From NCBI GenBank assembly GCA_951406725.2, contig OX597842.1:8184001-8248000 (forward strand): a DNA stretch of 64,000 nt. Direction: 5' to 3'. Below the pieces are notes generated by a model. The model did no database searches. It worked only from the letters and a program-made list of their open reading frames with translations, and was not told the DNA's origin. Position numbers and translations under genes: made by a program. Source of the stretch: Octopus vulgaris. Its lineage: Eukaryota. Positions 21,495 through 48,830 of this stretch are shown one piece after another (the first letter of the stretch is position 1; each line of letters starts with the position of its first letter).

Positions 21495-21533
21495 GTTAGC
21501 AAGCTACTTACCACACAGCCACTCCTGTGCCTA
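21495..21533 (-). mobile_element. SINE S1 head fragment (target-site side)
   Basis: gttagcaagctacttaccacacagccactcctgtgccta matches the S1 head at 27254-27290 and 56443-56482. Confidence 0.9.
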
Positions 21534-21569
21534 TGGGTAATAAAGAAATTACTAGTCAGTTAAGGTGAG

Positions 21570-21885
21570 ACAGTGTCACGTGACAACTTGCTGGGGCTGC
21601 CTGCTGGAGTCTAGCAGCAGGTATTTAAAGGGAGAAATTTGACAAGACAGTCAGTCACCGGCTGACACTCGCTGACAAGACATCGAAGAGGCCAGGGAAC
21701 AGAAGAAAGAAGATATGCATCCAACACCAGAGCTGAAGACACCTCTGAAAGGATGGGCCCCGCCACGTCAAAATGGTAGAGGAGTAGGGGCCGAAACCGG
21801 ACGTGGTTCTTCCTGATGATGTCTTGAGCTAACTGGATCCTATAAAGGATCTGTTGAGGTAGCAGACCACGAAACACGGTTGTAA
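21570..21885 (+). mobile_element. Possible Penelope-type terminal repeat with degenerate tandem hammerhead cores
   Basis: CTGATGA (21813) ... CGAAAC acggtt GTA (21870-21884), plus an upstream ggcccc...ggggccGAAAC stem. Stem I does not close. Confidence 0.4.
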
Positions 21886-22160
21886 TTCCTCCTGTCACTA
21901 GTGATGACCTTCGATAAAAGATAGGGATTGACTTCCTGCTTTTCTTGTAGTTCACAAAATGCATTCAATCATGACTGCTTTTGATCTTCTGTGAGCAAGT
22001 GAGGCATAAATTTTGCTGCAACACTTTTCATTTGCAATTCCTCGCTCAAGATTCGTTGACAGGAGCTCCAGGACTCACCAGTCATATCAACAAGTTCGGT
22101 CAATTGTTCGGTGAATGCCTTCCAAAATCAGTTCATGAATTTTCATGATGTTTTCATTTG
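21886..22160 (-). mobile_element. Mariner transposase fragment
   Basis: Minus translation ELVDMTGESWSSCQRILSEELQMKSVAAKFMPHLLTEDQKQS*...SKVITSD resembles the mariner linker and first catalytic D region. Confidence 0.75.
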
Positions 22161-22222
22161 TTTGGGAGGGTTCACCCTGCTGCTTGGTGGGGCACCTGCC
22201 GGGTGCAGCCCCACCCTGCTGC

Positions 22223-22244
22223 ATGATGAAGCATTTGGCTACCT
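22223..22244 (-). rRNA. Short 28S rRNA fragment, downstream half of the R2 target site
   Basis: Minus strand AGGTAGCCAAATGCttCaTCAT versus the conserved 28S AGGTAGCCAAATGCCTCGTCAT (14 nt exact, 20/22 overall), located at the R2 3' end. Confidence 0.7.
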
Positions 22245-25200
22245 ACACTTGCAGAGTTTCCCAGCAATCTTTCCCCGTTATTTACTGTGGGTGGTCCCAC
22301 ACGCACTTCATCGATAGCGACGTGCACGCTGTCCATCTGGTCTTTTTCCGTCGCGCTCTGCCATGGCCAGTGATTGAATTCACGGCGCCAGACTTCATAT
22401 CGGCGGTTGTCGATTCCGGTGGTGTCCGTTTTCCCGTCCGGGTTGTCGCACCCCTCAGGTGGCATCATTGGTATGGCGGCCAGGTACTCGTGTTTTGCCA
22501 CACATAGCACTGTGAGGTGGCAATGCCAGCGGTGAAGCATCAGAGTTCGGCCGCTCACACTTGACGCTCATCGGGCGGGCATGGATCGTTATTCCTGTCC
22601 GGTGTTCTCCCGCTCCATGTGAATAACGCGGGATTATCGTTGTTTTCGGGAATGTCCCCGCAGGAGTCAGGGTGCTTCGGCTGCGGGGATGTCGTATCCG
22701 AGAATGTTTGTCTTCGTTTTCTGACTGGCTCACGTACTGGAAGGCGGGTCCAGTCGTCCCGAGCCCTCAGCCCTGCGATGGTTAGTGCAGGGTACTAAAA
22801 GCTCGATGCACGCCTTGCTTTGGGGAACCCATGGAGGGAAACCGGCGGGGTGGCCAACAAAATCGCGAGATGACGGTTGCGATAGGCTTCGGGAAATCGA
22901 TACCGAGGGAGGCCGATGTAAGGATCGAACCTCATCTGCTGGTTCTGACGATAACCTCTTAGTAGCAGCGCCCAAGTGTGGGCCACACTGTCTGATCCCC
23001 GCCCTTGGATCAACTCCTCAGCATATTAAACATGCAGAGCATCGCGGTTCTGCTCAGCAGCCTCATGAAACGCTTGTCATTGATGCACAGCCAGCGCCTC
23101 CTTGGCCTCGGTGCACCATGCGCCGCAGGCCTCTATTGGACAACCGAACACTCTTACCGGTACATCCAGCTCCCTATGGAGAAGCGGGATCAGCGGCCGG
23201 TACTTCCTCTCCGTCTTGCGCGCGGCGTCACGCAATGCTGTACCTTGCTTGTACCTGACAGTTACGTCCACGATGACGACTTCGCTAGAGCTGCGGAATA
23301 CTGGGTCGGGAATATACCTGGACCCTGATACTCGATAGATCGGTTCCCAGCCGGTCACCCAGCCATACCATTCAGCTTCCCTAGCCACCAGCCGGCATAT
23401 TCGTGCGTGCCTGGTCAGCCTCTGCGTTTTGAAGCGTGAGCACTGGCCACTGATGTGGGAGATCGTTTCTGACGCGCTTCTGCACCTCCTGCAGGTGCTA
23501 TCGCCACTGCCTCCACGAGTGAGGCCTTCGCGTGTGGGAAACGTATTGGTCCGCATCTTGAGTATCCCCAAGTAGCATTCCTCAGATATCCCACCCGGGC
23601 GCGTCAACCAGCTGCTTCCGATCGGGTCCGATTTAAAGGTAGCGGCACAAACACCCTGGACCGGTTGGGATTCCCACCTCTTGGCGTGCATGAGGCGGAG
23701 GTCAGGGGCGTATGGGTTGCCATCATCTCGGACAGATGGTAGATCGAACAGGGCGGATAGCTCTTCGTTCTTATAGGCCAGTTCTGCTGCCCGAACTATT
23801 ATTCGAACGGCGTCGTAATCGGAATTCAGTAGACGTAGATTCATACGAATCACGTTTTTCGGGATAGGCGTGCCAACTGACAGAGGCTTACACCCCGTCC
23901 CTTCTTGCGCTATATAGGAAGCTTTTCGTAGTCGAATCGGGGAGATGGAGCATCCTTCGCGCCCCGCCTCTTACAGCCATATCTAATCTCTCTAACGCTA
24001 CTTTTGAGGGCATCGCCTGCGTTAGCCCGTTAAAACAGACTCGGCAGGTAGTACTGCTGTAGCATCAGGAACTTCTGACGGGGCTTCAATGGAGCCCGGC
24101 ATAGTTCATCTATACATCGTGTTACGGTCTTGACCGATGCATCTCTGATCTGTGTCGACCAGGGGCCAGCTCTTACCCCTAGGTACGGCACGCTTTCATC
24201 CGGTTCGACTCGAGGCAGCAAACATCCCTCGAGTTTCGGCGGTGGCGACACGTTTACAAGGAAAGACTTTCCCCAGTTTCGGATGGAGAACCACGCGCAC
24301 TTGGCAACGTTAATGGAGAGTCCTACCGCGTGGTAGAACTCCGAGCAGCGATTTAAGAGGCTCTGTAGACCCCGGCTGGTGCCAGAGATTAGCACTAAGT
24401 CATCCGCGTATGCGAGGCCCGCCATGACCGCACCTCCGACCTGGAGACCCATATCGTCGGGCAGGGTCTCCATCAGCGGGTTGGTCGCGACATTGAAAAG
24501 GAGGTCTTCCTGTCGGACACCGCGCCTAATCTCGATAGGCGTGCTACTCTCGGTCCCAATCGTGAAGGTAGTGGTGCAGCCCTCATAGAGCTGCCCCACT
24601 AGTCGTATCAGGTGGCTATGAGAGCCGAGCCTTCTCATGCCCGCAAAAATGAAGGAGTGCGAGACCATATCGAAGGCTTTGGCGAGGTCAAGGAAGGCTA
24701 TCTCTAGCCCCGGGAGCTTAGGTCGTGCGTGCGTTGCCCCCCCGGATGTGGTCCTGTAGCCAGCGGAGCAGAAAATTATTCTCGCCACATCCATCGGCCT
24801 TAACGAAACCGCGCTGGGCGGGGTTGAGGACATGGCCTGGAGCATCCTGGCGGCCAGCACCTTAGTGTATAAGCGGTACACCGCGGAGCAGATCGTGAGC
24901 GGCTGCCAGTTGGACAGGTCATTTGGGCTTCCTGCCTTCTTACGAAGGAGGATCGACCTGCCACGCAACAGGACCCTCGGAACGCGTCCCGTTAGTAGTA
25001 GGCAATTGAATATGTTGGCGAGGACCGCAGGGTCGACTGCCCTGACTTCGCGAGGTGTCAGGCCATCGGGGCTGGCGGCTGAGGCCGGATCCATGCGTCG
25101 GCGGGCGATCTTTATCTCCTCCAAGGTGAACGGACACAGAATCGGGGTGTTGTCCACCATGGAGGAGGCCGGATAGGCGCCTAGATCGACCTCTGGCCCC

Positions 25201-26603
25201 GTTGAGAGCGAATAGTCGCTGGTATCGCGCGTATTGCTGTGCTTTTGCGCGTCTGCTCGATTTGTTAGGCCCGAAGCCGAATCTAAGATTCAATAGCCCT
25301 GCCTTGGCACCAGGGGCGGACTTCCTAGTCCTTTCACGGGCACCCACACGGCGCGATGCCATGTGGCCCACCCAATCCTCGACACGGTTCTCGAACTCGT
25401 TCCAGCTCGACTCTGAGCAGTCATCGCTGAGTGTCAGAAGGCTCTCAGCGAAAGACGATGCCCATGCGGAGTGACCTGGCGATGCAGCTCCACTGAACGG
25501 CTCCCACCAGTCTGAGCTGGCGGGCTGTAGCGGTGCCGTACTCCTCGCAGTTGTTATACCTCGCGCGGCAGCGGGGGCCTGTGGGACTTTCAGGCGATCT
25601 TTACGCAGATAGCAACGCTTGTCGCTGATCTGTTTTGCCGTTTTGTCCGGCAGCCAAGGGGCTATTCCCACATTGACTTGCTTACAACCCGCTTCAAGCA
25701 GCTCTTTTTCCTTTGTTAGGAGGATTTCTGTCTCCTCCTCCGTCCAGCACCCTCGCGGCGCTCTCCCTGTGGTGCGCGCGATTCGGGCGCGCTGTTCTCT
25801 CTTGCGCGCTATATCTTTCACGTAACTGGCGATCCTGTGCCTGTTCGCCTGCACAGGGTGCTTGTGCCGAAGGTGTTGTGACAGCCCGGAGGCTGTCCCG
25901 TAGGCTTGGCTACACCAGTCACATCCGTGCGGGAGTTGGTGCGTAACTAGTGCCGTTGGAACTGCGTTCCCCTTGCACTTTGCCGCATGGCATCTAACCG
26001 AGTGGAGGTGGCCGCTCTCGAGGCCGCAGCGACTACATCTGAAAACAGGCTTCGTATCGTGCCTGTTGAGAACGTGGAGCCCCCATTCGAGGGGGCCCGA
26101 GAAGTGTCGGGGGCAGAGTGGACACACAATAGAAATCGACGCGCATGGAATCTCCACGACGAACGCCTCGGCCGGCGGTTGGCGGGTCATTTCGCCATCA
26201 CCAGCCTCCCCCGCGTGCGTTCTGTCCTCAAGGGAGCGAGGGGGAACGGACATGGGAAGGTCGGCGGGAGTTGTTCACCACGGAGAACCAACGTATAGGA
26301 TGCTCATTCGAGGACAAAGCGTCCCGGTCTATCCCTGGAAACGGTAAGCGACCTAAAGCCGCTTCTAACTGACAAATTCTGTGGGTCTACCTGAATACAC
26401 CGAGGAGGGCAAAACCCTGTACCTACCTCAGGGGGAAGTAACTTTTCGCTGCGCCGTGGTCGCATCCCACTTCGCAACAGTACCTGAGGCCCTCCCCGGG
26501 ACCTCGAGGCCGCTAGCTTATCGACGCCTAGCTTCCGTATGAGACTTACCTTTTGTACTGACATCTTAAGTTTTCGACAGTTCCTCCGTGAACCCGAGCC
26601 GAC
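22245..26603 (-). mobile_element. R2 retrotransposon (R2-A-like: three zinc fingers plus Myb), near full length, frameshifted
   Basis: C2H2/CCHC/C2H2 fingers and Myb (WTEEETEILL...KQISDKR) in 24940..26253. RT with LDLAKAFD and LAYADDLVL. CRRC...HISGQC, RH and PD..D RLE motifs in 23077..23853. Confidence 0.92.
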
Positions 26604-26645: not shown

Positions 26646-26649
26646 CCTG

Positions 26650-26921: not shown

Positions 26922-27290
26922 TACTCTTTTACTCTTTTACTTGTTTCAGTCATTTGACTGCGGCCATGCTGGAGCACCACCGTTAGTACTTATTCTATCG
27001 GTCTCTTTTTGCCGAACCGCTAAGTGACGGGGACGTAAACACACCAGCATCGGCTGTCAAGCAATGCTAGGGGGACAAACACAGACACACAAACACACAC
27101 ACATATACATATATATATACATATATCCGACAGGCTTCTTTCAGTTTCCGTCTACCAAATCCACTCACAAGGCATTGGTCGGCCCGGGGCTATAGTAGAA
27201 GACACTTGCCCAAGGTGCCACGCAGTGGGACTGAACCCGGAACCATGTGGTTGGTTAGCAAGCTACTTACCACACAGCCACTCCTGCGCA
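26922..27290 (-). mobile_element. SINE S1, near full-length, uninterrupted target site
   Basis: tRNA-like head with A box TGGCTGTGTGG and B box GGTTCAGTCCC on minus, internal (TA/CA) tract, (AAAAGAGT)n-like tail. Confidence 0.9.
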
Positions 27291-27482
27291 TATATCTACA
27301 CACATACTCATACATGCATGCATGTACATACACACTCATACTCTATACATACATATATACATACATACATATCAATCTATATATGCTCATACGGTTATAT
27401 ATAAGTACATATATGTATTTGAGTATCATGCATCTCAGCATGTATGTATGAATTTCTACATGTAAATGAGAGAAAGGGTTGG

Positions 27483-27951
27483 TTATAGAGGGGTACTCCT
27501 GAGTTGAATCTGTGTGTTACCCCATTCGGATTTATGGTTGAGGGTGGGTTTGTCTTCTTGTATGCAGACAGCTTCCGTGACCTGTCTCAGCATTGCATCA
27601 GTGGGATGTGTGGATAAGATGTTTAACTTAAGTCTCCCTAAGGAGCCCTTGTGGCAGTCTACAGCATGCTGATAGAAGATGGAGTTTGGTTTCTTTTCAA
27701 TGTAGTTGTCCAGGTGTTCTTTGAACCTGTCATTGATACTCCTAGAAGTCTCACCTATGTATGACGCTGGGTTAGTCACGCAAGCTCCTTTTTGGCACTT
27801 AATTTGGTATACAGCGCTCTTGGTTTTGCAGTTCACATGTGGGTTTGTAGAACATACTGTACAATTATTTTGACACGTAATTCTATCAAATGGATATGAT
27901 CGATATAATACAGATTTGATAGTCCTACCTGTCTTTTCTACAACTCTGATC
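27483..27951 (-). mobile_element. Penelope GIY-YIG endonuclease fragment
   Basis: AVYQIKC...YIGETSRSINDRFKEH...RQVTEAVCI...PTLN; truncated at the piggyBac TTAA. Confidence 0.85.
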
Positions 27952-28784
27952 TTAACCTTTTCGTTACTATATTTCTGACCAAAAAACACCGCTCATGAGT
28001 TTCAATTAAATTCTAAAATAATTATGAATTTAGACTAGTTTCATTAAACAACTCTAACTTTTTTACTTATCAACATATTAATGTGATATTTAGAACATAA
28101 TTGAAGAAAGAGTTCTTAATCAATTCCATTGCATAATTTTTGTCTCAAAGTGACTCTAATTACAGGCAAATCCAGGTAATTTGAGCAAAAAGTAAAAATA
28201 TTAAAACTTTGTTTAAACATTACCATAGAAAATCAGTCCTCAGCTAATATTTAATTGAGGTATGCAACAAAATTTTGATATAGAAGAATTGTGCACATCA
28301 CTAGATTATCAGTTGAATTTAATGCACAGAAGAACAGGTGTACCATAAAGGTAAAATAAACTGAAATATTAGAATTTGTTTTTGAAGAAAACTAGAAAAT
28401 TAAATACAACTGAATGAAATATACTCACACACATACATGAATACACAGGAACATGTATAATAAAGATTTACAATAGAAATTAAATCAAAACTTGTCACTC
28501 ACCTTCCAGCAAATTAAAATTACAGGTAAATTAAAATAAAAAGTTAAAACTAAGTAAATTTGAAAAATATTTATACAATCTAATTATACATATATACAAA
28601 CAATATTTACATTATATTTCTATCATGGAAAGTTGTAAAACATCCCACTCTACATACTGCAACCTGGCAGAATGCACATTGGAAGGACGTTTCAACTGGC
28701 CATCCACTGGGAGTTTTTCTTTTTTGATGTAGACATTCACGGCACTGCCGTTTGCGACCCCCGATTTTTTCTAATTTATGTAGA

Positions 28785-31700
28785 TCCTGTTTTGCTGCCA
28801 GTTGCAGTAGACATCTGCCAAGACGTCTCCAAACAAGTCTGGCATATGAAAATAAAGTTCGTAGGGCAGACCATCCAAGCCTGGTAACTTGTCTCTCGCG
28901 CAGCCTACCATCGCATCCTGTACGTCCGCAGCTGTGATAGGCCTTTCACAAGACTCCACCTCTCTTGCTGAGAGTCGTGGCAAGGCATGCAGGTAGGCAC
29001 TAAAGTCCACTCTGCGTTCTGACCCACCACTTGTCCCAAACAGTTGGGTGAAGTGTTGTTGAAAAGCCCCACACATCCTTTTAGGCTCGAGCAATTCGCG
29101 CCCCTGTTCATCTATAAGAGACTTGATGGTGGCTCTGTTGCCTCGTTGCGGTTCCAACTCCTTCGTTCCTCGGAGCACGCATCCTAGCTCTGACAACGCA
29201 TCCCTCGTGTTTGGCGTTGAGGTGTTGGTCGAGGGCCAATCTCGCCGCCAGCACGTTGGACGCGATGCCAGTTCTAAGTGCCTCTTCTAAAACCTTAACT
29301 AATTCTCCCTCTATTCTATTTTGGTCTAATGCTAGGGCTTTACTGTATCTGACTGATTCTGCTTTAATTGCTTTTTTTAGGGCATACCACCATCTGTTGT
29401 TGATGATGGTACCCGTCAAAGCTCTCTTAACTAATGTGCTGATCCGGTCCCTGTAAACCTGTTGTGCTGTAAAAGACGCGTTCAGTTTCCAGTAACCAGG
29501 ACCCTGCCTATGTGTCTTATCTAAGTCAAGTGTACAAGTCACAAACTTGTGATCTGTGTAACTGACTATATGAAATTGTGGACAACCTACACTATTTTTA
29601 TCTATTGTCCTACAGAATACTCTATCTAAGTATGATCTGGACGACCCGATGCGGTTACTCCATGTCCACATTGGCACATTCGGGTGGTCCAATCGGTACC
29701 TGTCAGACAGTTGGAAACGTCTGAGCAGGTCTTTGAGGCATTTGCATCCCCTTCTATTGCTATCTCTGCCCACGTAGTCTAGATGCGTGTCCAGGGTGGC
29801 ATTCCAATCCCCACTAAAAGTAAAGGACGAGACATTCCCATGAAAGACTCTAGACGTCGAAAGAAATCTGGTCGGCCTGTTAAGGACGGAGCATAAACTG
29901 CTATCAGTCGAAAAGCACACTCATTGCTGCCATCGACATCCAAAACGACCAGCCTACCCTCCGGGTCTAGGAAAATTGCTCTTACTTTGAGATCCAGACT
30001 CTTCCGGAGAAGCACCGCGGTGCCACCTCCGCCCATTCTCGGTAGACACAGAGGAAAATAAATGTTGAAATGTGTACCGAAACTGTGCTGGAGTGCCCGC
30101 AAGCTGTGGAGTCTGATCTCACTGATGGCTATGATATTCAGATTTAGTGACTTGATGTCATTTAACAGGTAGCTTTGTTTCCAAGGCGACCCCAAGCCAC
30201 GTACATTTATACTGCCTATTCTGAGCATGTTCCGATAAAAAATTGTGTTTTACACACGAAAAGAAAGTGCAAAAAAAGGAAAGAGAGAGAGAAAAGGTTA
30301 CTTGTTGTCCGAAAGTCCTTTGTTTTTCACCTCACAGTCTTCTTCCATGAGGTTTTTGTATAGTTTTTTCGATGAATACTTTTGAAATCTCCCTACTGCA
30401 TCAGGGTAAAGAGATTTCAGGGTGCTGTATGTGTTCTGTGTTACGTGTATTATTTTAATGTGTTGTGGTGGTGTTGTGCGTGGGTGGTTACTTGTTTTTA
30501 TGTCGTTTTCAGTTATGTTGGTGTTTGACCTAATGTGTTCCATTAGGTCGTGGTTGTTTGTGTTTATGGCTGTCAACATTGTTGGGGGGTTTGATGATGG
30601 TGTGTTTGTGTTGATGTGTTTGTTTTCTGTGGATGTTTTTGTTTCGGGAGTGGTGTATCTTCCTGCTTTGTTTGTTATTTTTTCTTTTCTTTTTTTTCCC
30701 CTTTTTCTTCTCCCCCCTGTGGCTATTTGCCAATCTTCCATGTCTTCGTCTAATGACAAATCAGACGAATCAGAGCTTGGAAGAGGGAAAATATTGGGGT
30801 CTATTGTAGACTGTGTTGATTTTGTTGTTGGTGTTGGTTGGTGAGCGTTTGGTTGTGGTGTATGCGGTTTTGGAGGTGGGGTGTGGGTATTTTGTGTTTG
30901 AGTGATTGTAGGTATTGTTGTGTTGTTTGGGGTCTCAATTTTGTGGGGATTTGGAGTTGTAATTGTTTCTTCATTTTCGCTGAGTGTCTTTTTGGCAGAT
31001 GTCCTTGGTTTGGGAGTTGGTTTATTCTTGGTTGTTGTTGTTGGTGATGTTGCTTCTGTTCTTGGTGCTGCAGTTGGTGTGGTTGTTTGGTTGGTGAGGT
31101 TTGTTCATACAAAACGTGGTGTGGGTAGTAAACCTGGTTTAATTGTTTTTTCCGGCTGCTGTTGTTGTTGCTGTTGTTTTCTTGCGGCAGATTTGCAGTC
31201 TTTTTTTTAGGTGTTGCTCACTGCCGCATATGTAGCAACGTGGTCTTCTGCCATCGACAACCACATACAACTTGTGGTCTTCTGATACACATTATCTGGG
31301 TGGGTATTTTTTTTATGTCTTCTTGATTTACGTGTAGTAGAAATTCTACTTTTTTTCCCACCCAGTTTTTGTGCCCCGTGACCGTGGTTTCCAAAATTGT
31401 GAAATTTGTCATTTTTACACATAAGGCCTTTACTAGCCATAGATTATTGGCTATTTTGGGGACATTGTTTAAAGTGATCTTAGTCACTTTCTGTCCCCGA
31501 TAACTTGGTGTTAGTGTAAGTTCATCTGAATGAAGAGTTAGCGTTGAGAAACGTCTTGCTAACTCTTCAGTGTGGAAAACCACTTTTATGTGGGCGAACT
31601 TGTTCCACCAAGTCACATAGTCTTTGTAGTTGCAGATGGGTTTCAAGCATTTTTCTATTTTGCTTGTGTTAGCCTTCTCTGGGCTTTTTGTTTTCTTATT

Positions 31701-34040
31701 AATTATTTTATAAATAATTGTTCTTTTTTTTTCATCTTCCAATATTTCTTCTGGTATGTTTATCTTCACTATACCATCTAATTCTGTTACTGTAATGTTT
31801 GTGTCTTGTATTTGTTGAGCAGTAAAATATACTGTTTAATTGTTTTTTCCGGCTGCTGTTGTTGTTGCTGTTGTTTTCTTGCGGCAGATTTGCAGTCTTT
31901 TTTTAGGTGTTGCTCACTGCCGCATATGTAGCAACGTGGTCTTCTGCCATCGACGACCACATACAACTTGTGGTCTTCTGATACACATATCTGGGTGGGT
32001 ATTTTTTTTATGTCTTCTTGATTTACGTGTAGTAGAAATTCTACTTTTTTTCCCACCCAGTTTTTGTGCTCCGTGACCGTAGTTTCCAAAATTGTGAAAT
32101 TTGTCATTTTTACGCATAAGGCCTTTACTAGCCATAGATTATTGGCTATTTTGGGGACATTGTTTAAAGTGATCTTAGTCACTTTCTGTCCCCGATAACT
32201 TGGTGTTAGTGTAAGTTCATCTGAATGAAGAGTTAGCGTTGAGAAACGTCTTGCTAACTCTTCAGTGTGGAAAACCACTTTTATGTGGGCGAACTTGTTC
32301 CACCAAGTCACATAGTCTTTGTAGTTGCAGATGGGTTTCAAGCATTTTTCTATTTTGCTTGTGTTAGCCTTCTCTGGGCTTTTTGTTTTCTTATTAATTA
32401 TTTTATAAATAATTGTTCTTTTTTTTTCATCTTCCAATATTTCTTCTGGTATGTTTATCTTCACTATACCATCTAATTCTGTTACTGTAATGTTTGTGTC
32501 TTGTATTTGTTGAGCAGTAAAATATACTGTTTAATTGTTTTTTCCGGCTGCTGTTGTTTTCTTGCGGCAGATTTGCAGTCTTTTTTTAGGTGTTGCTCAC
32601 TGCCGCATATGTAGCAACGTGGTCTTCTGCCATCGACGACCACATACAACTTGTGGTCTTCTGATACACATATCTGGGTGGGTATTTTTTTTATGTCTTC
32701 TTGATTTACGTGTAGTAGAAATTCTACTTTTTTTCCCACCCAGTTTTTGTGCTCCGTGACCGTAGTTTCCAAAATTGTGAAATTTGTCATTTTTATGCAT
32801 AAGGCCTTTACTAGCCATAGATTATTGGCTATTTTGGGGACATTGTTTAAAGTGATCTTAGTCACTTTCTGTCCCCGATAACTTGGTGTTAGTGTAAGTT
32901 CATCTGAATGAAGAGTTAGCGTTGAGAAACGTCTTGCTAACTCTTCAGTGTGGAAAACCACTTTTATGTGGGCGAACTTGTTCCACCAAGTCACATAGTC
33001 TTTGTAGTTCCAGATGGGTTTCAAGCATTTTTCTATTTTGCTTGTGTTAGCCTTCTCTGGGCTTTTTGTTTTCTTATTAATTATTTTATAAATAATTGTT
33101 CTTTTTTCATCTTCCAGTATTTCTTCTGGTATGTTTATCTTCACTATACCATCTAATTCTGTTATTGTAATGTTTGTGTCTTGTATTTGTTGAGCAGTAA
33201 AATATACTGTTGTTTTTTTCTTTAATCGCCTCAGCGAAATTTGTTGTTGTTTTGTTATTGTTGTTGCTGGTGGTGATGTTGTTGTTGGCTGCAGTTTGTA
33301 AAATTGGTGTGTTTGGTTCAATTGTGCAAGTAGGAAGGGGTGGAAAATTATTTTCATAATTTATCCCTGTATTCGAGCAGCTTTTGTCAATTTGTTTGGT
33401 GGTTACAGTTTTTTGTTTATTCACTTCAGTTCTTGTTGTTGGAGTAAAACAGGTCTGAACAGAATTGTTGTTGTTGTTGTTTTTGTTGTTGGTGGTGGTG
33501 TCAGTGGCAGAAGCGACAGCCGAGGCAGCAGATGTCGAAATGGTGGCGCAATTTTTATTTTTGCTGTCATTGTTATTGTTGTTGCTGTTGGTAGTTGAGG
33601 TAGTGGATGAGGTGGTGGTGAAGGCGGTGGTGGTAACAGTAGAAGTCTCTATGTTGTTCTTGCTAGTGGCGGTGTTGGTGACAGGGCTGTTACTACACGT
33701 AGTAGTAGCGTTCATTGCAAATTCATTGATAATTTTACTTTGCGCGCAAAATTCTTTTTTTTCTCCTAGCGTTTCCGGTCTAGGAGAAAGCTGGTCAATA
33801 AAGGAACGTGACCATCATTCTACAATACAATTTCTTGACATTTTGAAAATGTCTAGAAAGAAATTACAAAAATTAAATGGGGTTGAAACTGCCCCTAGGG
33901 GCGAATTCCTTCCTTGGAAAAGCACTCAAACGAAAGTTGGGTGCCTTACACACCTTATTTACAAAAATGTACACAAAAATTAGGCTATAAATAGTCAAAA
34001 TAAACGATTACCTTTGGAGTTGAAGTGACAGCACGTCTGT
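28785..34040 (-). mobile_element. Tx1-clade element family E (5' UTR, ORF1, APE, linker; truncated at the RT start), nested in piggyBac
   Basis: ORF1 with Thr/Asn-rich N-terminus and CYICGSEQHLKKDC. ORF2 MLRIGSINVRGL...GPGYWKLNAS...PGLDGLPYELY. The 5' end reads AGACGTGCTG next to a (GATA)n tract. Confidence 0.88.
31137..33211. repeat. Three tandem ~695-bp units inside family E ORF1
   Basis: aattgttttttccggctg recurs at 31141, 31838 and 32533; ORFs 31218, 31787 and 32482 are near-identical. Confidence 0.95.
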
Positions 34041-34829
34041 AGATGGATAGATAGATAGAGAGGCAGGCAGGCAGATCTCTCTCTGGCAGGCTTTGCTTTT
34101 CCTTCCTGCAGTTATTTTTTTTGAGGAATATCCTGCCCTCAACTTAATTGCTACATCTGCCTGGAACTGCAGATGGTCGCACCGCTTGCGAACCCCTCCT
34201 GATTTGGTATATAATATAAATGCATTTACAATGCTCATGTTTATTATATACCAAACCAGGTATCGCCACCATTTATTACCCGGTCTACCAACCGGATAAT
34301 AACTCATCATCTGGTTCAGCCGATCCACACCGCCCATGTACCTGTTATAACCAAGGTTCACAAACAGAGTGCCATTTTCATCTATACATGGTTGTGCACT
34401 GGTAGATAGAAAATTTATCTGCCTCTTATCCCTGTATGCAGTCGCTAGCAGATTTCCTTTCTGCCTTTGGATTATTTCACCTCTTTTTTTAAATTTTGCT
34501 TTTTTTATATCCAACGGCAGCCCTTTTCTACTAGCAATTACTGTAGAACACGTATACGTTGCCACGGCTTCTAAATCCGCCGCAAGTTTGACCGAACTGA
34601 AAAATCGGTCAAAACATAATATTCGGTCCTGGTTATGGTATGGAAGAGATAAATTCCAGACCACATCGTATCCTAGGCCGTGCTGACTAACATTATTGTC
34701 TCTTTTCCCTGTATAGAAGCTAAATCCACAGCAGTACCCACTTTTTGCTTCACATATTTTCCAAACTTTGATCCCCCATTTTGTGGGCTTTCCTGGCATA
34801 TACTGCCGAAAACGTACTCGGCCTTTATA

Positions 34830-36593: not shown

Positions 36594-36983
36594 ATACTCT
36601 TTTTTTACTCTTACTTGTTTCAGTCACGTGACTGTGGCCATGCTGGAGCACTGCCTCTAGTCAAGCAAATCAACCCCAGGACTTTGTAAGCCTAGTACCT
36701 ATTCTATCAGTCTCTTTTGCTGAACTGCTAAGTTACGGGGACATAAACACACCAGCATCGGTTGTCAAGCGATGTTAGGGGGACAAACACAGACACAAAC
36801 ATATACACACACATACATACATATATATATATATACATATATACGACGGGCTTCTTTCAGTTTCCGTCTACCAAATCCACTCACAAGGCGTTGGTCGGTC
36901 CGAGGCTATAGTAGAAGACACTTGCCCAAGATACCATGCAGTGGGGATGAACCCAGAACCATGTGGTTGGTTAGCAAGCTACT
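36594..36983 (-). mobile_element. SINE S1 body and tail, cut at the Tx1/HAL1 target site
   Basis: Matches S1 up to ggttagcaagctact, then switches to the retroelement 3' end; the missing head is at 39020..39058. Confidence 0.9.
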
Positions 36984-39019
36984 TTATTTCAAAACATTTG
37001 CCATAAAGGCAGTACAGAGATTAAGTTAGCTTTGCGGGCTGGACGAGGACATTAATGAAGTGAATGATAATGAAAGACAGATGATAAGGATGGGAGAAGA
37101 CAAAAAGCGCCCGCCGACTTTCGCTTCTCTAAAACATTGTTCTTTTTAAACACAAAACGAGGTATTAAACCTCTTACAATTTTTCCAATTTTTGGACTTA
37201 GCAGTCCATTATTAATAAAAATGCAAAACGAGGTATTAAACCTCTTTCAATTTTCCAATTTTTGGACTTGGTAGTCCATTATTAATACTAACAGTTCAAT
37301 AATTACATATCGTCCTCGAAATAGCTTGTGCCCGCGCCCTCCACCATCAACCACGCCTCCCTCAGAACGTAATCAAGTTCCGAGTTCGCGTCGCCAGGGA
37401 CCAAGCTATAATCTTCATTGAGCTCCTTTAGCCCAAGCGTCACGTCGAACGCCATGGCCTCCACAGCTATCTGCGGAGGCCATTCGGGGTCCTGTGTGAA
37501 GGCTAAAGGAGCTCCCTTGTGGTACTCTTCCATTTTTTTTTCAATTTCTCCTCCTCTATAGAAGAGGACCAATACGTTCAGTTCTTTCGTTGGCGGCACA
37601 GTTCCCGCCAACGTCTGCGGCTCATGGATATCAGCTGCCCGACCTTTTTCTCCTCCTTCTTTTGGGGGAGACTGCTGACCCAGGGGACTCCGTCACCAGA
37701 CACGGGGGATTGCTATCCCCCTCCGCCACCTGAGCGTTCTTTGGCGAGCAGCCATTGTTGCTCGCCTGTCTCTTTCTTTTCGTGGAGGCAACCTCCTCCA
37801 TGACTTTCACCGTCTCCCCCTCCAATGAGGGGGCGGCGGGCGCCTTTTCCCCTTCATGCTCCGGGGCACCACCACGGCCCCCGGGACAATTCCTCTTGAT
37901 ATGTCCGGGCTTCAGGCACAGGTGACACTTGGGGGGCGTCCCTCGAGTATCACCGGGTACTTGTGCCCAGCCATTCTCAGGAAGTCCGGGAATTTCATTT
38001 CTCCCACGGCCACCGGTGTCCACAGGGTCAAAGTTGCCTTTGACCCCTCCCAGGCGACCGCGGGAGCCATTTTCACACTCAGTAGCCTGGGTCCGCTAAC
38101 CCCCAGGCCTCGCCGGATGGTCTTCTTGATCCATTCCGCCTCCGTGCCCGGGGGCAGCCCACAAACCCAGGCTCTTTTTACTTTTCTGCCACAATACGAG
38201 GGGAGGAACAAAATTTCCTCTCCCTCCGGTGGCTCGCTAGCAAATCTGCTAGCTTCCTCGGGGGTACCAAACAGCAACCACACCGTTGCAAATTTACTCC
38301 CCCGAGAAATAAACTTTATCGTTGGTAGGTGGTCCCCCAACTCTTTCTCTATGGTGCTCCTGTCGAAGAGGGCGATAGCTCCACGCGACCTAGAATAGGT
38401 TCATAGGACCACCGTCCTCTTCTCAAGACTTTCAATCCACTGCTTGGGTGGGACAACCTCCCATTCCAAAGCAGTGGTTTCTTTTGTTGCCATGATTTTG
38501 AAAAAAAAGTTCAACTAAAAGTTCAAAGTCCAATAAGAAAAAAACACAATGACAGAATGGAAAGACAGAGCAGAGAAAAGGACGAAGGAAGACAGTTCAA
38601 ATAATGGCAACACAGTTCTGCAACTGGTAATCCTCACGAAACAGGGTACTCCTAGTTGCAGCACACTTGGTTCTCCGTGGTAAATCCAAGCACAATTGGT
38701 TCTCCGTGGTAAATCCAAGCGAACAAATTAATTTTTGAGGAGGGGCTATGCCTCTTCAAAATACACAATTCTCACTAAAAGGTGAAACAATAAATACGCC
38801 AACAGGCAGAACAAATACATCCGAAGCAAAGTGAAGCTTATTACGTGCAGAAAAGTGTTAACACTAATTAACATTAATGCCAAAAAAGTATTAACGGCAA
38901 GCAATAAACCTCACTATGCTTCCAAAAATATCCAAAATGTCCTACCTGTTGCCGTAAAATGTTCAATAATTCACGTTAACACGTGACATTTGCCGGAGCA
39001 AAAAACAGCACGTCTGTCT
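36984..39019 (-). mobile_element. Apparently complete ~2.0-kb ORF1-only (HAL1-like) element, family B/A type, inserted in SINE S1
   Basis: 5' end AGACGTGCTG, ORF1 (ISRGSKFATVWLLF, LFLPSYCGRK, CHLCLKPGHIKRNC, C-terminal ...EDDM*), 3' UTR ending in AATAAA. Flanked by ggttagcaagctact / ggtaagaagctact. Confidence 0.8.
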
Positions 39020-39058
39020 GGTAAGAAGCTACTTACCACACAGCCATTCCTACGCCTA
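39020..39058 (-). mobile_element. SINE S1 head fragment (other half of 36594..36983)
   Basis: ggtaagaagctacttaccacacagccattcctacgccta. Confidence 0.85.
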
Positions 39059-39109
39059 TGCATCTAAGCTTTGCAATGTCCACCTACAGATTGCAAATCA
39101 GATGTCCAG

Positions 39110-39267
39110 TCCAATATCCCAAAGGTTGGCACTTCAACCCACACCGCAAAAGCATTGTGAGATATCCTTCTTGATTTCTGTGTAAATTTGTCGGAGTCTA
39201 ATGCACCTAAAATAATGGGTACAAACAAGACTTTAATTTCAGGGTACAAGAGCTGTAAGTTCCACAT
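39110..39267 (-). mobile_element. R4/Dong-like restriction-like endonuclease C-terminal fragment
   Basis: LQLLYPEIKVLFVPIILGAL motif in ORF 39064..39303. Confidence 0.55.
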
Positions 39268-39688
39268 TCTTCTTCTTAATCCTTTTTGCCCCTTGTGGAG
39301 CATAGGGCCTCAACAGTTGTTTTCCACTTTTTGCGGTCATTGGTGTGTTTCTTGGTTGCTTCCCATGTCAGGCCGGTGGTCCTGAGCTCGTCCAAAATGC
39401 TCTGCTTCCATGCCTGCTTCGGGCATCCTCACTTCTTTTTCCCCTGCGGGTTCCAGTCAGGTGCTTGTCGTGTCACATTTGAGGGTTCTTTCCACAGTGT
39501 GTCCAATTCATCTCCATTTCCTTTGTCTAATCTGAACATGTATGGGCTCCTGGTTGGCCCTTTCCCACAGGTCGGTGTTTGGCACTCTGTCGAACCACTT
39601 CAGATGGAGGATCTGCCGGAGACATTTGTTGATGAAGGTCTGGATCTTCTTGTAGTTGCTGCAGGTGGCTCTCCATGTTTCAAGTTCC
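39268..39688 (-). mobile_element. 5'-truncated RTE-type LINE with 3' end and (GAA) tail
   Basis: ORF 39508..39690 plus a VEALCSTRGKKD* end and taagaagaag tail. Confidence 0.8.
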
Positions 39689-42170: not shown

Positions 42171-42207
42171 TCACTTAAAAAATTTTTTTACAAAAATTAT
42201 ACGAGTA

Positions 42208-42273
42208 TAGGCACAGGAGTGGCTGTGTGGTGAGTAGCTTGTCTACCAACCACATGGCTCCGGGTTCAGTCCC
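42208..42273 (+). mobile_element. SINE S1 head (plus orientation) abutting the truncated Tx1 ORF1
   Basis: aggcacaggagtggctgtgtggtgagtagcttg...ccgggttcagtccca. Confidence 0.85.
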
Positions 42274-43308
42274 AGGAAGGAGCTGCAGGTCCTCCTGTGT
42301 TCCTTGAATTATTACATTAATGTCTCGCCCAAGCCAATATAGAGGGGCAGAGCATGTTACTTGTAGTATTTTAATTTTGTCCGTCCTTTTATTTAACAGG
42401 GCGGCCACTACCTCTACGGGATCTACTTCTGGCGGTGCTTCTGCAATCCTGACCCGGGATGTCCTGCATCCCCTATAGGTTGGCAGAAGTACCACCTCCT
42501 TGGTTTTTAGGGGATTCACAGAATGCCCACGGGCCACCTCTTCCCCCGAGAAGTGGACCTCCACAGTGCCATATGCCCGTCCCCTGGCGACGTACACAAT
42601 GTCCTTCCAAATCGGGGACAGGCATTTCTCGATAGTATTCTTTTCAAAGTGTTTGAACCTTCTGCTTTGTGGACGGAAGGTTTTAAACACTACGGTCCGC
42701 TTCTCGGTCTCCACGATACTGGCGGAGGGTGATATTTTAACATCACCACCCTCCTCTTTCATTCTTTTAAATAGCTCGATGAGCTGATTGACATTGATGT
42801 CAATGTTCTTGGTTGCCACTGCGGCTACCGTCGAAAATTTTTTACTACAGTTATCAACATTGCTCTCCTCTAGAGCACTATTTTCGTGAATAATCTCAAC
42901 AGACATTATTCTGTTGAAATTAGTAATAGACAACACAAAAAATACAAATATTAGTTTCCCACAAAACTGGGAAACCTAAAAAAGTTTCTTCCAAGCAGTT
43001 CAAAAATTAGGTTTAATTCCCACCCCCATTCGGGGGAGGGGCACGAAGATAGTCTGGCAAGACTAACAGTCACGTAGATAAAAAAGCCACAATGGCTAAC
43101 AGTTCAACAGTAACAAATTATCCAATTATTCCCCGGTAAAACTGGAGAACAAGACAGTTCAACAACGTTCAAAAACAAATTTTCAGTAGTAAAATTCAAC
43201 AAGTTCCAGATGGTACGAAGTAATATTAACAACACAGCAAAACTCTTACCGGGAAGAAAATGCGTCCAAACTGTAGTAAGGTAAGCAAAGTCACTCTTCA
43301 GTCAGTGA
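42274..43308 (-). mobile_element. Tx1-type family C 5' UTR plus ORF1 N-terminal half
   Basis: ORF 42175..42936 (MSVEIIHE...EKRTVVFK...IEKCLSPIW...RGRAYGTVEVHF...LLPTYRG) is a paralog of 47440..48258. The 5' end abuts ggttagcaagctact. Confidence 0.8.
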
Positions 43309-43323
43309 GGTTAGCAAGCTACT

Positions 43324-44670
43324 TTATTTCAAAACATTTGCCATAAAGGCAGTACATAGAGTAAGTTGGCTTTGCGGGCTGGACAAGGACATTAATGAAG
43401 TGAATGATAATGAAAGAAAGATGATAAGGATGGGAGAAGACAAAAAGCGCCCGCCGACTTCTGCCTCTCTAAAACATTGTTCTTTTTAAGGATAAACACA
43501 AAACGAGGTATTAAACCTCTTTCAATTTTTCAATTTTTGGACTTAGCAGTCCATTATTAATAATAACAGTTCAATAATTACATATCGTCCTCGAAGTCGC
43601 TTGTGCCCGCGCCCTCCACCATCAACCACGCCTCCCTCAGAACGTAATCAAGTTCCGAGTCAGCGTCGCCCGGGACCAAGTTAAAGTCTTCATTGAGCTC
43701 CTTTAGCCCAAGCGTCACGTCGGACGCCACGGCCTCCACAGCTACCTGCGGAGGCCATTCGGGGTCCTGTGTGAAGGCTAAAGGTGCTCCCTTGTAGTGC
43801 TCTTCCATCACTTTTTCAATTTCTCCTCCTCTATAGAAGAGGACCAATACGTTCAGTTCTTTCGGTGGCGGCACAGTTCCCGCCAACGGTATTCCTTCTC
43901 TTGTCGGTGGCACAACCCCAACCGACGTAGTTCCGGGACATTCCGGTGCTACACTGACAGTCGGTAATGTCCCGTTTTTCTTCCTCTTTTTCTTTTTTTT
44001 TTCCCTTTTCAACTGAGGGAGGGTGCGTCTCCTCCGTGGCTGGAAGATTCACCTTCCTCTCCTCATCCCTATTATCCTTTGGTGAGCACCCATTGTTGCT
44101 CACCTTCCTCTTCGGCCTCTGTTTGAGGAGTCCTCTGCTTTCTCGGCCGTTATCATTCCCTCTTCTAGAGGGGTTTTACTTAACTGTTCTGGGAGCCTAT
44201 TTTGTTCCCGGGGACAGTTCTTCTTTATGTGGCCGGACTCCAAGCACCGATGACACTTAGGGGGCGACCCTCAAGCATCACCGGGTACCTGCACCCGGCC
44301 ATTTTCAAAAAATCTGGAAAAACCAGATTGGCTGATTGGGTCCACAGGGTCAAAATTGCTTTTGACCCAACCCAAGCAGCCGCAGGAAGAACTTTTACAT
44401 TAAGGAGCTTAGTTTCGCTGCCACCCAGACCCCGGCGGATAGTCTCCTCTATCCACTCGGGTTCTATGTCGGGTGGCAGACCGCAAATCCAAGCTTTCAT
44501 CAATTTCTTTTTTTTGTACGTGGGCAGGAATAAGATTTCCTTACCCTCCAGGGGTTTGCTAGTGAGCACCCATTGTTGCTCACCTTCCTCTTTCGGCCTC
44601 TGTTTGAGGAGTCCTCTGCTTTCTCGGCTGTTATCATTCCGTCTTCTAGAGGGGTTTTACTTAACTGTTT
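43324..44670 (-). mobile_element. ORF1-only (HAL1-like) element family A', 5'-truncated, intact 3' end
   Basis: ORFs 43578..44012 and 44225..44569. The 3' junction ctact-ttatttcaaaacatttgcc is identical to that at 36981. Confidence 0.8.
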
Positions 44671-44679
44671 CTCCAATTA

Positions 44680-45404: not shown

Positions 45405-45780
45405 ATACTCCCTTGGGCAGGGTGGATGGGTATTTGGTGATAGGCCTGGACAAGATCTGGTTTCGAAAATATAGTACTACCATGTAGCAAAGCTGTGAAA
45501 TCCTGCAAGTTTGTAATGGGATAGTGGTCTGGGACCGTGATGGTATTAAGGCATTTATAGTCCCTGCAGGGTCGACAGTTGGCAGATGACTTCTTCAGTG
45601 CCATGTGTAATGGAGAAGCTCAGCTCTAGGAAGCAGGATGTACAATTCCAAGCTGTAACATGTTTTTGAATTCCGCTTTTGTAACCTTAAGTTTTTCTGC
45701 TGACAAACGTCACTACTGAGAAAAGACAGGTGAGCCCATGGTTGAAATGTGGTGTTCTACAGTGTGAGTTATCTTTTCCA
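45405..45780 (-). mobile_element. Gypsy RT fragment
   Basis: SPLHMALKK...RPCRDYKCLNTITVPDHYPI..LQDF...STIFSK.DLVQAYHQIP. Confidence 0.8.
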
Positions 45781-46010
45781 TAGGACATGGGTTGCATTAA
45801 CTCTGGGAATGACCACAACATTGCTTTCTTAAGCTGTTCTCCATCCTCAACTGTTTCATTTTCCTGTTCCTTGAGCCCTTCTTTCCTTTTACTAATTGGG
45901 TCCCATATTTTTTCCCTCCAAAGGGTTCAATTCTTGTATCATATTCTGAGATTGCTAATTTCCCAGTTTCTCCTCTGTGGATCACGTCATTTTATATAAA
46001 GCTTTGTGAA

Positions 46011-46175
46011 GGCGCATGGCTTAGTGGTTACGGTATTCAGCACATGATCATAAAGTCGTGAGTTCAATTCCTGGCAACTCCTTGTGTCCTCGAGCAAGAC
46101 ACTCTATATCATGTTGCTCCAGTCCACTCAACAGACAAAAGTGAGTTCTACCTGTAATTCAAAAGGGCCAGCCTT
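46011..46175 (+). mobile_element. Second tRNA-derived SINE family, 5' part
   Basis: A box tggcttagtgg, B box gagttcaattcc, followed by gtgtcctcgagcaagacact. Confidence 0.65.
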
Positions 46176-46199
46176 ATTTGATGTTCGGATGGTCAAGTC

Positions 46200-48790
46200 T
46201 CTAACGAACCGCCAGCTGAAACCGCTTAAGCAGATCCACGAGATGTGAGTTCACTTTCCTATGGATCGAGCCAACACTATCGATGTGTACGTCAACGATA
46301 GCATTAAAGTCTCCTAATACTACTAAAGTCTTCGACATCACGAGAAAGCCCTCTAGGTACTGATAAAAATCAGTTTGGAAGCCTCTAGCACAAGGTGCAC
46401 AGAGTCCGATCAACCTGAAGGCCTTACTGCTGTATGTCACATCAAGGACGACCAGCCCACCTTCAGGGTCCACATAGACTGTACTTGTCTGCAGAGCCAA
46501 GCTTTTACAGATCAGTACCACTACACCCCCTCGTCCTCCGGTCTGACCGGGAGACATGATTTTCTCGTAGCCATTCAGGAGAGGCGAGAAGGTTTGTAGA
46601 TTATCCAGCTTGGTCTCTGTAGCAACCATCACATGCATATCATGTGATCTGAGATCGTCGAGGAAACACGCCTGCTTCCACTTCAAACTCAGACCACGCA
46701 CATTCAAACAACCAAGGTTAAGAGACGCCGTTACAATAAGTAAAGGTTCTACTTACATTTCTTTGGAGATTTGGGGGCTGACCTTACCACATGTGGATCC
46801 GTCCCCTTCTCGTATCTCTTCGCGTAACCCGGTAAATCCACAATCTTCCATATGGCCATCTGGTTTCTGTCCTTTAGTTCCCGGTATAGGGATTTTTCTA
46901 CCCTTGCACATCTGTTCTTCAAATCATGGTGTTGGATGTACAGCATAGTCCTTTTGTGCTTTAAAAGGGCGTCACTTGTATACGTGTCTGTCGTATCGTA
47001 TTCCACCAACATAACATTTTTGTTTTCTTCCGGGACAGATGGGCAGGGTTTCTTTTTTGGTGTCTGTGGTGCGTTTTTTTCTGTTTTGTGTGGAGGATAT
47101 GGGTTGTGAAGGTCTACGGGAACGTTTCTTTCCCACTAGTGTGAATCCAACCTCTGAAACCTCCATGGTGTTATCTGAGGGGTTGGTGGCAGTTTCTTTC
47201 GGCGCAGTGTTTTCCATTGGTGCCGGGTCTTCCAAGAGGGTTGGGTCATTTTGTTTATGTAGGGACTTGTGCATGCCGGGGCTGGGTTTTTCTGTGCTTT
47301 GTTTGGAGACTAGCACCTCAACAACGGGGGTGGGAGTTTTTGTTTGTGGGGGTTGGTGTGTTTGCGGGGGCGGGTTTTTTTTTTTGTTATTTGAGGGGCC
47401 TGGTGTTTGCAACAACTTTTCTTTTTCTTCACAGTCAGCTCAAATGTGGCCCTTTTTTCCGCATTGGTAACAGGTGGGCTTACGGCCTTCCACCTGTACC
47501 CTAAGGGCCACATTCTCCCCAACGAGTACTCTCTCTGGTAGGACTTGAATGTCCTCCTGTTTGCCTTGTATTAAAACCGTTATGTTCCACCCTAACCACA
47601 TCTGTGGGGCGGAACTTGTGGTCTGTAATATGTTAATCCGGTCCGTCCTGTTAAACAACAGGCCGGCCACCACTTCTTTCGGGTCTACTGTGGGTGGGAT
47701 TTTGTTAATCCTTACACGGGATGATCGTCGCCCCCTGTATGTTGGCAAAAGTACCACTTCCTTGGTCTTCAGGGGGAATACGGCGTGCCCGCAAGCCACC
47801 TTTTCCTCTGAGAATTGAACCTCAACGGATCCGTATGCCCGTCCCCTCGAGATATACACTATATCCCTCCATATCGGGGCCAGTCATTTTTCAATGGTTT
47901 CCTTCCCGAAGTGCTTAAACCTTTTGTCTTGTGGGCAGAAGGTTTTAAACACCACGGTCCTCTTTTCCGTTTCTAGCACGGTGGAGGAGGGCGATATCAC
48001 AACATCACCTCCCTCCTCCTTCATTCTTTTAAAATATCCCTGCAGCATGTCTGCAGAGATATCTATGTTTTCGGTTGCTACTTTTGCAACTGCTGAAAAC
48101 TTTTTCTCAGCGTTGGCGCAATTGCCAACATCAACATTGCTCTCTTCAAGATCAGATTTTTCATGTATTATTTCAACCGACATGGTTGAAAAGTAATTGG
48201 TTTCCCACAAAACTGGGAGACCTTTCGAAAAAAGAAATTTTCCGCTCACAGAGGACAAAAGTAATTAATTTTTTAAATACTCGCAGTCCTAGGTTCAAAT
48301 CCCACCCCCGCTGGGGGGTGAGACGTAGCAACAAAGTCTACGACGATTTGAAATTATTTTCCACTACAACGAAATCCCCAAAAAGGGAAACCTATATTTT
48401 TTCCAAAACAGGACGACAACAGTTCAAATCTCGCCTGTGCTACGGGTGGATGTCACAATAGAGCCTACAATGGCTAAAATTTAATTTTTTCACAACAATT
48501 TGCTATCCCAAAAATGGGAAGCCTATAATATTTCTTTTCCTCTTAATCAGGATAACAGTTCAAATGCCACTCCCGCAGGGAGGGGGGGGGCACAACAATA
48601 AAGCCTACAACGGCTTTAACAAGTTCAACAATATTAATAATTCAATATTAATTTTTTTTTTCCCTTACAACAATTACTTTTTCCCGTCACCGGGAAGAAA
48701 ACACAAAAGTTCACAAAAATATTCAATAAACTAAACAGCAGAAAAATTATCCGTGTGACTCACCGCAAAAAAAACACCGAACATGTCTGA
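46200..48790 (-). mobile_element. Tx1-clade family C element (5' UTR, ORF1, APE N-half), 5' end at the SINE target site
   Basis: ORF1 with CYQCGKKGHI knuckle; ORF2 start NVRGL...VATET...LCAP...LGDFNA. The 5' end is followed by ggttagtgagctacttaccacgcagcc. Confidence 0.85.
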
Positions 48791-48830
48791 GGTTAGTGAG
48801 CTACTTACCACGCAGCCACTCCTGCGCCTA
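48791..48830 (-). mobile_element. SINE S1 head fragment (target-site side)
   Basis: ggttagtgagctacttaccacgcagccactcctgcgccta. Confidence 0.88.

Follow-up and report, generated by a model that had tools for sequence, protein, structure and literature searches.

Why do four retrotransposon 5′ ends in one stretch of the Octopus vulgaris genome adjoin the same base of a short interspersed element (SINE)? The stretch, called the window here, comprises 64,000 nucleotides (assembly GCA_951406725.2, contig OX597842.1, positions 8,184,001 to 8,248,000). The original prediction, made from these letters alone, was that a long interspersed element (LINE) with an apurinic/apyrimidinic endonuclease (APE) and a reverse transcriptase (RT), together with partners coding only for open reading frame 1 (ORF1), inserts at one base in the tRNA-like head of a high-copy SINE. 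This holds genome-wide, and the SINE-targeting LINE system is real and long-lived. Very probably it is a clade of L1/Tx1-like LINEs that occupies one base of the SINE head throughout the genome, with the APE likely nicking and priming there and the RNA likely starting with the target.

A degenerate motif for the 3′ tail of the elements matched the genome 1,731 times, and the reversed pattern, used as control, not once. Directly after 915 of the 1,731 tails follows AGTAGC, the start of the target; about 0.4 would be expected at 1 in 4,096. The first 100 tail matches in genome order included 80 of LINE type, 18 tails of a different short repeat and 2 located before (TAA)n or (TCA)n. At the site were 73 of the 80 LINE-type tails, 52 with the exact hexamer (19 of them read) and 21 in a mutated or older SINE (read); one was antisense in a SINE head and six were outside this SINE. 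An older ORF2-bearing copy (L260) is found in antisense orientation in a SINE head, and the target is partly palindromic. A pattern for targets with non-SINE sequence behind them matched 1,002 times, for the most part at SINEs with point changes; among 30 loci, 7 were insertions.

With a 120-base query inside the 3′ untranslated region (UTR) of the ORF1-only elements (type A), 1,561 candidates were obtained, and all 40 that were scored end at the target base. Outside the window, a SINE head is found 2.0-2.3 kb upstream at 37 of 39 type-A loci; of the remaining two, the first has the tail of another element and the second neither; loci selected by their type-A ORF1 start at the target in 18 of 20 cases. 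For the autonomous elements (families B1 and B2), an APE fragment gave 150 scored matches, many of them in open frames of 1,140-1,150 amino acids (aa). All 18 loci chosen by the length of their ORF2 frame end at the site: 17 pass directly into the SINE body, and the last one, L100 of family B2, belongs to a mixed array and has the target at either end. The same end was found at 20 of 20 loci selected by RT and at 30 loci selected by the B1 3′ UTR (the sets overlap). Junctions extracted genome-wide thus share the SINE target instead of having unrelated flanks, and the insert lies between two SINE motifs which we take, by their consensus, to be A-box-like and B-box-like, as had been proposed. 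The preference is far above the criterion of 20% of flanks used in PMC4494074 (73/80, 40/40, 18/18 and 20/20). Perfect empty 29-mers number 61,686 and occupied sites at least 915, an occupancy of the order of 1-2%, and the effect on the SINE itself is small. The proposed part of the SINE as a safe harbour is conjectural.

The SINE is the target and not the cargo, because SINE bodies differ by about 8-9% between loci and the elements by 1-3%. Within families the median difference of the element ends is 1.0-3.0%, that of the SINE bodies behind them 8.0-8.7% (15, 19 and 28 loci); array loci, headless loci and L161 are omitted from this comparison and from that of empty and filled heads. Both common SINE variants are found behind every family. 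Older lineages occupy an older version of the SINE (AGAAGC) and have the same version at their own 5′ ends. Three 5′-truncated copies are flanked by a 15-nt duplication, which is exact in L217, has the same rare variant on both sides in L177 and matches at 13 of 15 positions in L261. Re-use of occupied sites is evident from mixed arrays (A-A, A-B and, within a single SINE at L118/L119, B-B-B), and a joint between an A tail and a B1 start is also present in a contig of another sample. At G000:C1:223694766-223706788 seven ORF1-only copies form an array with a 2-kb period directly upstream of a full B1 element (L114); similar arrays are located at C5:78.74-78.76 Mb and C10:101.17-101.19 Mb.

In the window, all predicted junctions are present. 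Element 5′ ends adjoin the target 15-mer at 21494, 39020 (a 14-nt variant), 43309 and 48791, and element 3′ ends lie on its other side between 36983 and 36984 and between 43323 and 43324. Every insert in the window shares the orientation of the SINE, and a filled site, read on the minus strand, has the element between two target copies, with the SINE head before the first and the SINE body after the second. The sites predicted to be empty at about 27253 and 56442 are real empty SINEs, and a third empty SINE at the window edge had been overlooked. Allowing three mismatches or fewer, the 15-mer occurs 10 times in the window (1.42 expected, shuffle maximum 5); it is exact at 27253, 36969 and 43309, has one mismatch at 21494 and two mismatches at 48791, 56443 and 63862. 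The features are as follows:

13395-14011, minus strand: B2 fragment, ORF2 end and 3′ UTR, without a junction
19608-21493, minus strand: E1, ORF1-only, type A, subfamily like L408; 3′ junction lost through rearrangement
21494-21534, minus strand: SINE head and 5′ target copy (21494-21508) before E1
26929-27293, minus strand: empty SINE, target at 27253-27267
36605-36983, minus strand: SINE body downstream of E2, begins with the 3′ target copy (36969-36983) and contains the B-box-like motif
36984-39019, minus strand: E2, complete ORF1-only element of type A2 with both junctions; zinc-knuckle ORF1, frameshifted here
36999-37011, minus strand: 3′ tail hairpin TGCC-N5-GGCA, common to autonomous and ORF1-only families
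37026-37035, minus strand: 3′-UTR motif complementary to the target start
39011-39015, minus strand: AGACG motif, 19 bases from the target start in A2, resembling the consensus of the downstream promoter element (DPE)
39020-39059, minus strand: A2-specific 14-nt 5′ target copy (39020-39033) and SINE head with the A-box-like motif
42207-42274, plus strand: SINE head fragment in opposite orientation at the E4 break-off
42274-43308, minus strand: E4, 5′ UTR and ORF1 start of autonomous family B1; remainder lost
43309-43323, minus strand: target 15-mer between E3 (3′ end) and E4 (5′ end)
43324-44669, minus strand: E3, 3′ part of an ORF1-only element of type A1; 5′ end lost
46180-48790, minus strand: E5, 5′ half of autonomous family B2 with 5′ UTR, broken ORF1 and APE (46204-46752)
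48791-48831, minus strand: 5′ target copy (48791-48805) and SINE head before E5
56031-56483, minus strand: empty SINE, target at 56443-56457
63836-64000, plus strand: empty SINE ending at the window edge, target at 63862-63876

E2 is the sole insert in the window with both junctions, as E1, E4 and E5 have lost their 3′ ends and E3 its 5′ end. The 15-mer between E3 and E4 is the joint of a tandem of two families (A 3′ end to B1 5′ end) and not the flank of one insertion.

Which elements use the site? B1 is approximately 5.45 kb long and encodes an ORF1 of 487 aa (zinc knuckle, PF00098 above cut-off) and an ORF2 of 1,140 aa. In the 1,140-aa ORF2 of L101, PF03372 (APE), PF00078 (RT) and PF13966 (zf-RVT) were found above the Pfam cut-offs. 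The best PDB matches of ORF2 are structures of L1 ORF2 and its endonuclease (EN), and in an alignment of the APE to the human L1 EN the catalytic motifs are present at their positions. Autonomous families span 5.45-5.7 kb and copies with an intact ORF2 exist; B2 and B1 are 93% identical in ORF2. Type-A elements contain only ORF1, about 400-430 aa where intact, and measure 2.0-2.3 kb between their junctions in 37 of 39 loci. Their ORF1 is 27-30% identical to that of B1, which bears out the claim of at least two ORF1 lineages, one APE-bearing and one ORF1-only, and 24-26% identical to that of a sister family, D. An ORF2 followed the type-A ORF1 at none of 20 loci, one of which had a distant 121-aa fragment. 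Judged by sequence, the ORF1-only elements are an old lineage of their own and not deletion products of an autonomous family found here. The dN/dS ratio of their ORF1 is 0.11-0.13 between distant lineages (192 codons, dS near saturation) and 0.17-0.45 between closer ones; L407 is frameshifted, which inflates the ratio, and was excluded. These ratios indicate that the ORF1 of the partners is under purifying selection. The TGCC-N5-GGCA hairpin and an A-rich end are common to A and B (7 of 7 valid rows, an eighth from the wrong strand being left out; no compensatory change), and this shared tail is likely the handle for trans-mobilisation of the ORF1-only elements.

A separate ORF1 with a CCHC zinc knuckle is a feature of the Tx1 clade. 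Architecture and behaviour of the elements fit this clade and make them candidate Tx1 members. The closest named relative of ORF2 comes from Argonauta hians (64% over the RT region). In an RT tree of 34 rows, B1, B2, family D, the Argonauta protein and P0021 group together at 100/99 and the deep forks are weak; the sole row named TX1 (P0224, an automatic name) is unplaced relative to that clade in this tree, which is without curated Tx1 references. The first whole-protein search returned nothing close, a search of the Atlas returned generic RT clusters only, and a metagenome scan for relatives found distant RTs only (best segments 22-45% identical). For an ORF2 relative from a limpet (P0128 cluster), many neighbouring locus tags are present on one scaffold, suggesting a tandem and possibly targeted array.

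We propose the following mechanism. The APE would nick the bottom strand at the target start and prime reverse transcription there, and the top strand would be cut about 15 bases further on. Pol II (RNA polymerase II) transcription would start at or just upstream of the target, so that the RNA would begin with a target copy; the end of the complementary DNA (cDNA) could then pair with the 15-nt overhang and replace the bases native to the locus, which would favour full-length copies. ORF1-only elements would be trans-mobilised through the shared tail. Each insertion rebuilds the site, and its re-use gives the mixed-family tandem arrays.

RGWCG is a DPE-like motif. In 9 of 27 non-truncated 5′-end clusters this motif begins exactly 28 bases from the first target base, and the 12 bases before it vary freely; 19 of the original 52 clusters had been dropped as reverse-strand or non-junction artefacts. 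Counted from the initiator A, a functional DPE occupies +28 to +32 (PMC8384218). Since the spacing matches the position of the DPE, it suggests Pol II initiation at the target, with a shifted start needed for the youngest families; T-runs would stop Pol III, which argues for Pol II rather than Pol III. Contigs with B1 5′ ends were found in three presumed-RNA runs, although contigs cannot reveal starts. At the filled loci viewed, TATATA lies ahead of many SINE heads, roughly 25-31 bases from the start of the target, which would be the canonical distance for a TATA-like element.

The 3′ UTR contains a motif that could pair with the target's top strand, with read-through RNA or with leader RNA, so that aiming or priming might be partly directed by RNA, an option compatible with the mechanism above which we regard as possible but rather doubtful. 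In eight tail clusters AGCTA[C/A] occurs together with AGTAGC sites and in four AGCTTC together with AGAAGC, with no crossed cluster, and for the B1 motif folding predicts a stem of 10 bp with read-through RNA of the target (z about -2). Relatedness of the clusters makes the Fisher p of 0.002 for the association of motif and site too favourable; L419 combines the new motif with an old-type site, 9 of 21 clusters lack the motif, one read-through fold in four does not improve on shuffles, and an intramolecular stem explains the covariation without DNA pairing. Only tentatively can a transcription start supplied by the target and the element motif 28 bases in be combined into one promoter, with an RNA that begins with its landing sequence and a SINE-tracking 3′-UTR complement that aids aiming or priming. 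If true, the SINE would serve the LINEs twice, and an APE LINE with intact copies would have an RNA-assisted targeting system that rebuilds itself.

How are the 5′ junctions formed? The prediction of a duplication of about 15 bp was correct for truncated copies and a few full-length ones; most full-length elements have inherited their 5′ target copy. At 33 full-length loci the 3′ copy differs from the usual 5′ copy of the family and is thus informative, and in 31 of them the 5′ copy follows the family (array loci, headless loci, L161 and L047 are omitted). A one-base deletion is present in 16 of 18 A2 5′ copies and absent from every 3′ copy, and B1 has two inherited insertion variants of the 5′ copy. 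As the 5′ copy of full-length elements tracks their lineage, the target is likely present in the RNA as a leader. R2 RNA is thought to keep upstream target sequence, through which its cDNA would anneal to the target and yield uniform 5′ junctions (PMC6895275). The bases -7 to -1 show 2 changes in 448 at filled sites and 12 in 196 in 28 young empty copies, and in B1 this uniformity extends to -18. Truncated copies were rare among the loci read, and an extra SINE head precedes the element in L035, L057 and L164. A hidden older target copy at x=30-44, counted from the target start, in B1 and A1a was not significant against shuffles (115 to 361 of 2,000).

An ordinary 15-bp duplication with 5′ copies later homogenised by gene conversion or recombination among family members is in our view unlikely. 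Mosaic or recombined copies are common (window 10.7-20.8 kb; L157, L054) and two of the 33 loci have a locus-matched duplication, but the 5′ variants are common to copies on many contigs and track sub-lineages, as the A2 deletion and the two B1 variants do, and neither the adjacent 3′ copy nor the SINE body is homogenised. With inheritance of the 5′ copy through the RNA as the preferred reading, the lineage-marked copy is a genomic read-out of LINE 5′ junction formation, an open mechanistic step.

Could the true target be a tRNA gene or another conserved RNA gene, with the SINE hit through the resemblance of its head? Related clades do target tRNA genes (PMC4640811), and in a weak alignment of the SINE head to the tRNA-Lys(TTT) of this genome, best over the T-arm, the site falls in the region of the D-stem and anticodon-stem. 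ARAGORN and Rfam gave no match to the SINE head, and the target was present in none of 35 distinct tRNA sequences (30 loci; an incomplete sample, with 63 of 656,489 candidates scored). Furthermore, no junction was read with a tRNA flank, the older lineages both occupy and carry the older SINE variant, so that targeting tracked the SINE, and the sister family targets (TATC)n, all of which makes a tRNA target very unlikely.

That the copied unit was a composite SINE with a LINE fragment inside, the SINE halves being mobile too, is scarcely tenable: the 5′ 15-mer is as uniform as the element itself and the B1 head is uniform back to -18 (3 mismatches in 504 compared to 33 in 504 in empty heads), but SINE bodies are 3-8 times more divergent than elements, SINE variants are mixed within each family, families that differ in length and have unrelated 5′ UTRs use the same base, truncated copies show duplications of their own, and mixed arrays exist, one joint being found in another sample's contig. 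For the SINE body this reading is largely refuted. The SINE fragment is a fixed element terminus, a possibility raised with the original prediction, for the 15 bases of full-length 5′ copies and not for the SINE body.

Several observations weigh against targeting of the SINE head by the proposed mechanism. About 8% of the LINE-type tails (6/80) are not in this SINE, and the 5′ copy follows the locus and not the family in 2 of the 33 full-length loci. The 15-bp stagger is read from three clear truncated copies. The most conserved target bases (-7 to +9) may reflect choice by the enzyme or overwriting by the leader, which are not separable. RGWCG begins at 57 in B1 and A1a and at 19 in A2, the youngest families, where the start must differ. 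The 20 loci covered of the 150 listed matches included no autonomous copy with an ORF1 of type A, and the ORF2 that would move the partners is a candidate only. An empty allele at an occupied locus was not isolated, as contigs of four runs, each from a different organism, over 36300-39400 were dominated by SINE paralogues and their skip joints were not assignable to this locus.

Tx1 elements are described that target DNA transposons, long terminal repeat (LTR) elements, small nuclear RNA (snRNA) genes and microsatellites, with non-autonomous passengers (PMC4494074). Examples are Tx1L in Tx1D (Xenopus), Tx1-Mar in Mariner-N4_AMi, Tx1-8_Crp and Tx1-4_AMi in LTR elements and Tx1-9_AMi in Harbinger (PMC4494074, PMC1950540). 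The octopus system is like Tx1L and the crocodilian Tx1 elements in that an APE LINE sits at a fixed place in another transposon, has microsatellite-targeting sisters and passengers that share its target, and inserts in tandem. Unlike those elements, it uses a tRNA-like SINE head between A- and B-box-like motifs, at one base and in the same orientation; its passengers are 2-kb ORF1-coding elements and not snRNA-headed SINEs, and the 5′ target copy is inherited with the element. R2 with its 28S-derived leader is similar in the uniform 5′ junctions and in keeping the upstream target in the RNA, as we infer here; however, R2 has a restriction-like endonuclease (RLE), rDNA co-transcription and a ribozyme (PMC6895275), whereas the octopus elements have two ORFs, an APE and a DPE-like motif, and their SINE target is dispersed. 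The ORF1-only elements resemble HAL1 (half-L1), which is non-autonomous, has ORF1 only and keeps the LINE 3′ end (PMC5753468), but they are site-specific, non-mammalian and have a zinc-knuckle ORF1 27-30% identical to the autonomous one. Dada (PMC8869645), NeSL-1_TV and LIN15/25_SM (PMC4640811) also insert in the region of an internal Pol III promoter within multicopy sequences; they are DNA transposons or RLE LINEs in functional tRNA genes, whereas the target here is a SINE with more than 61,000 perfect empty sites.

In the literature we found no LINE that targets a SINE head and no Tx1 targeting in cephalopods; Repbase was outside this search, and a prior note there is quite possible. The repeat annotation of Octopus vulgaris lists 13 recently active L1-Tx1 families, and the words "target" and "nested" do not occur in its main text as far as accessible (PMC13282606); SINE-head targeting is also unmentioned in the accessible parts of PMC8967140 and PMC4758252. 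This extends the list of targets known for site-specific APE LINEs by a SINE head, and the hyperparasite kept up with its host SINE across two or more versions of the sequence. For annotation, it matters that such elements are easily mis-built as SINE-LINE chimeras. The inherited target leader, the target-anchored promoter spacing and the complementary tail motif are mechanistic hints which the intact copies make testable.

The largest blocks with an APE in the window, at 10.7-19.3 kb and 28.8-33.5 kb, were considered as the autonomous partner and ruled out, as they belong to the sister family D, which inserts in (TATC)n. Family D fills 10668-19300 and 28785-33501; its ORF2 has 1,159 aa, and many intact copies and tandem arrays (L300-L319) exist. 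D and B are 60% identical in ORF2 and fall in the same 100/99 RT clade. The D 3′ end is followed by (TATC)n in 15 of 15 loci among the matches listed (20 searched), and a GGA[T/C]GTG motif lies a few bases inside its 5′ end. The endonuclease hairpin loops, for which a role in specificity is described (PMC1950540), differ between D and the SINE-targeting enzymes. Two intact sister enzymes, one for the SINE site and one for (TATC)n, form a natural pair for studying how APE specificity switches.

The different short repeat with a TGCC-N5-GGCA tail, followed by TTA/TCA-rich sequence, was seen at L178, L185, L188, L194 and L283-L296, and a similar one in the window at 55513-55916 and 58753-59252, in 183-bp tandem copies. 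It is likely a SINE which is moved by a LINE related to these. At L180/L297 and L192/L298 long (TAA)n or (TCA)n comes after a related tail, and these elements may be further microsatellite-targeting sister families.

Altogether, the window is a transposon graveyard. At 15607-20828 a mosaic of type-A 3′ UTR joined to pieces of the family D ORF1 is present in three copies (15607, 16837 and 19296), a product of local recombination and tandem duplication. A degraded single-ORF LINE with N-terminal zinc fingers, an RT and a C-terminal nuclease-like region is located at 23077-26274 on the minus strand, and is by its architecture presumably R2/NeSL-like. At the window start (151-702, minus strand) lies a further diverged ORF1 of the same general type as those of the targeting elements. 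Fragments of other transposons at 3048-5009, 7262-9216, 27483-27992 and 34008-35608 (minus strand) include a Gypsy-like gag-pol, an RTE-like RT (PF00078), a GIY-YIG domain (Penelope-like) and a piggyBac-like transposase (PF13843).

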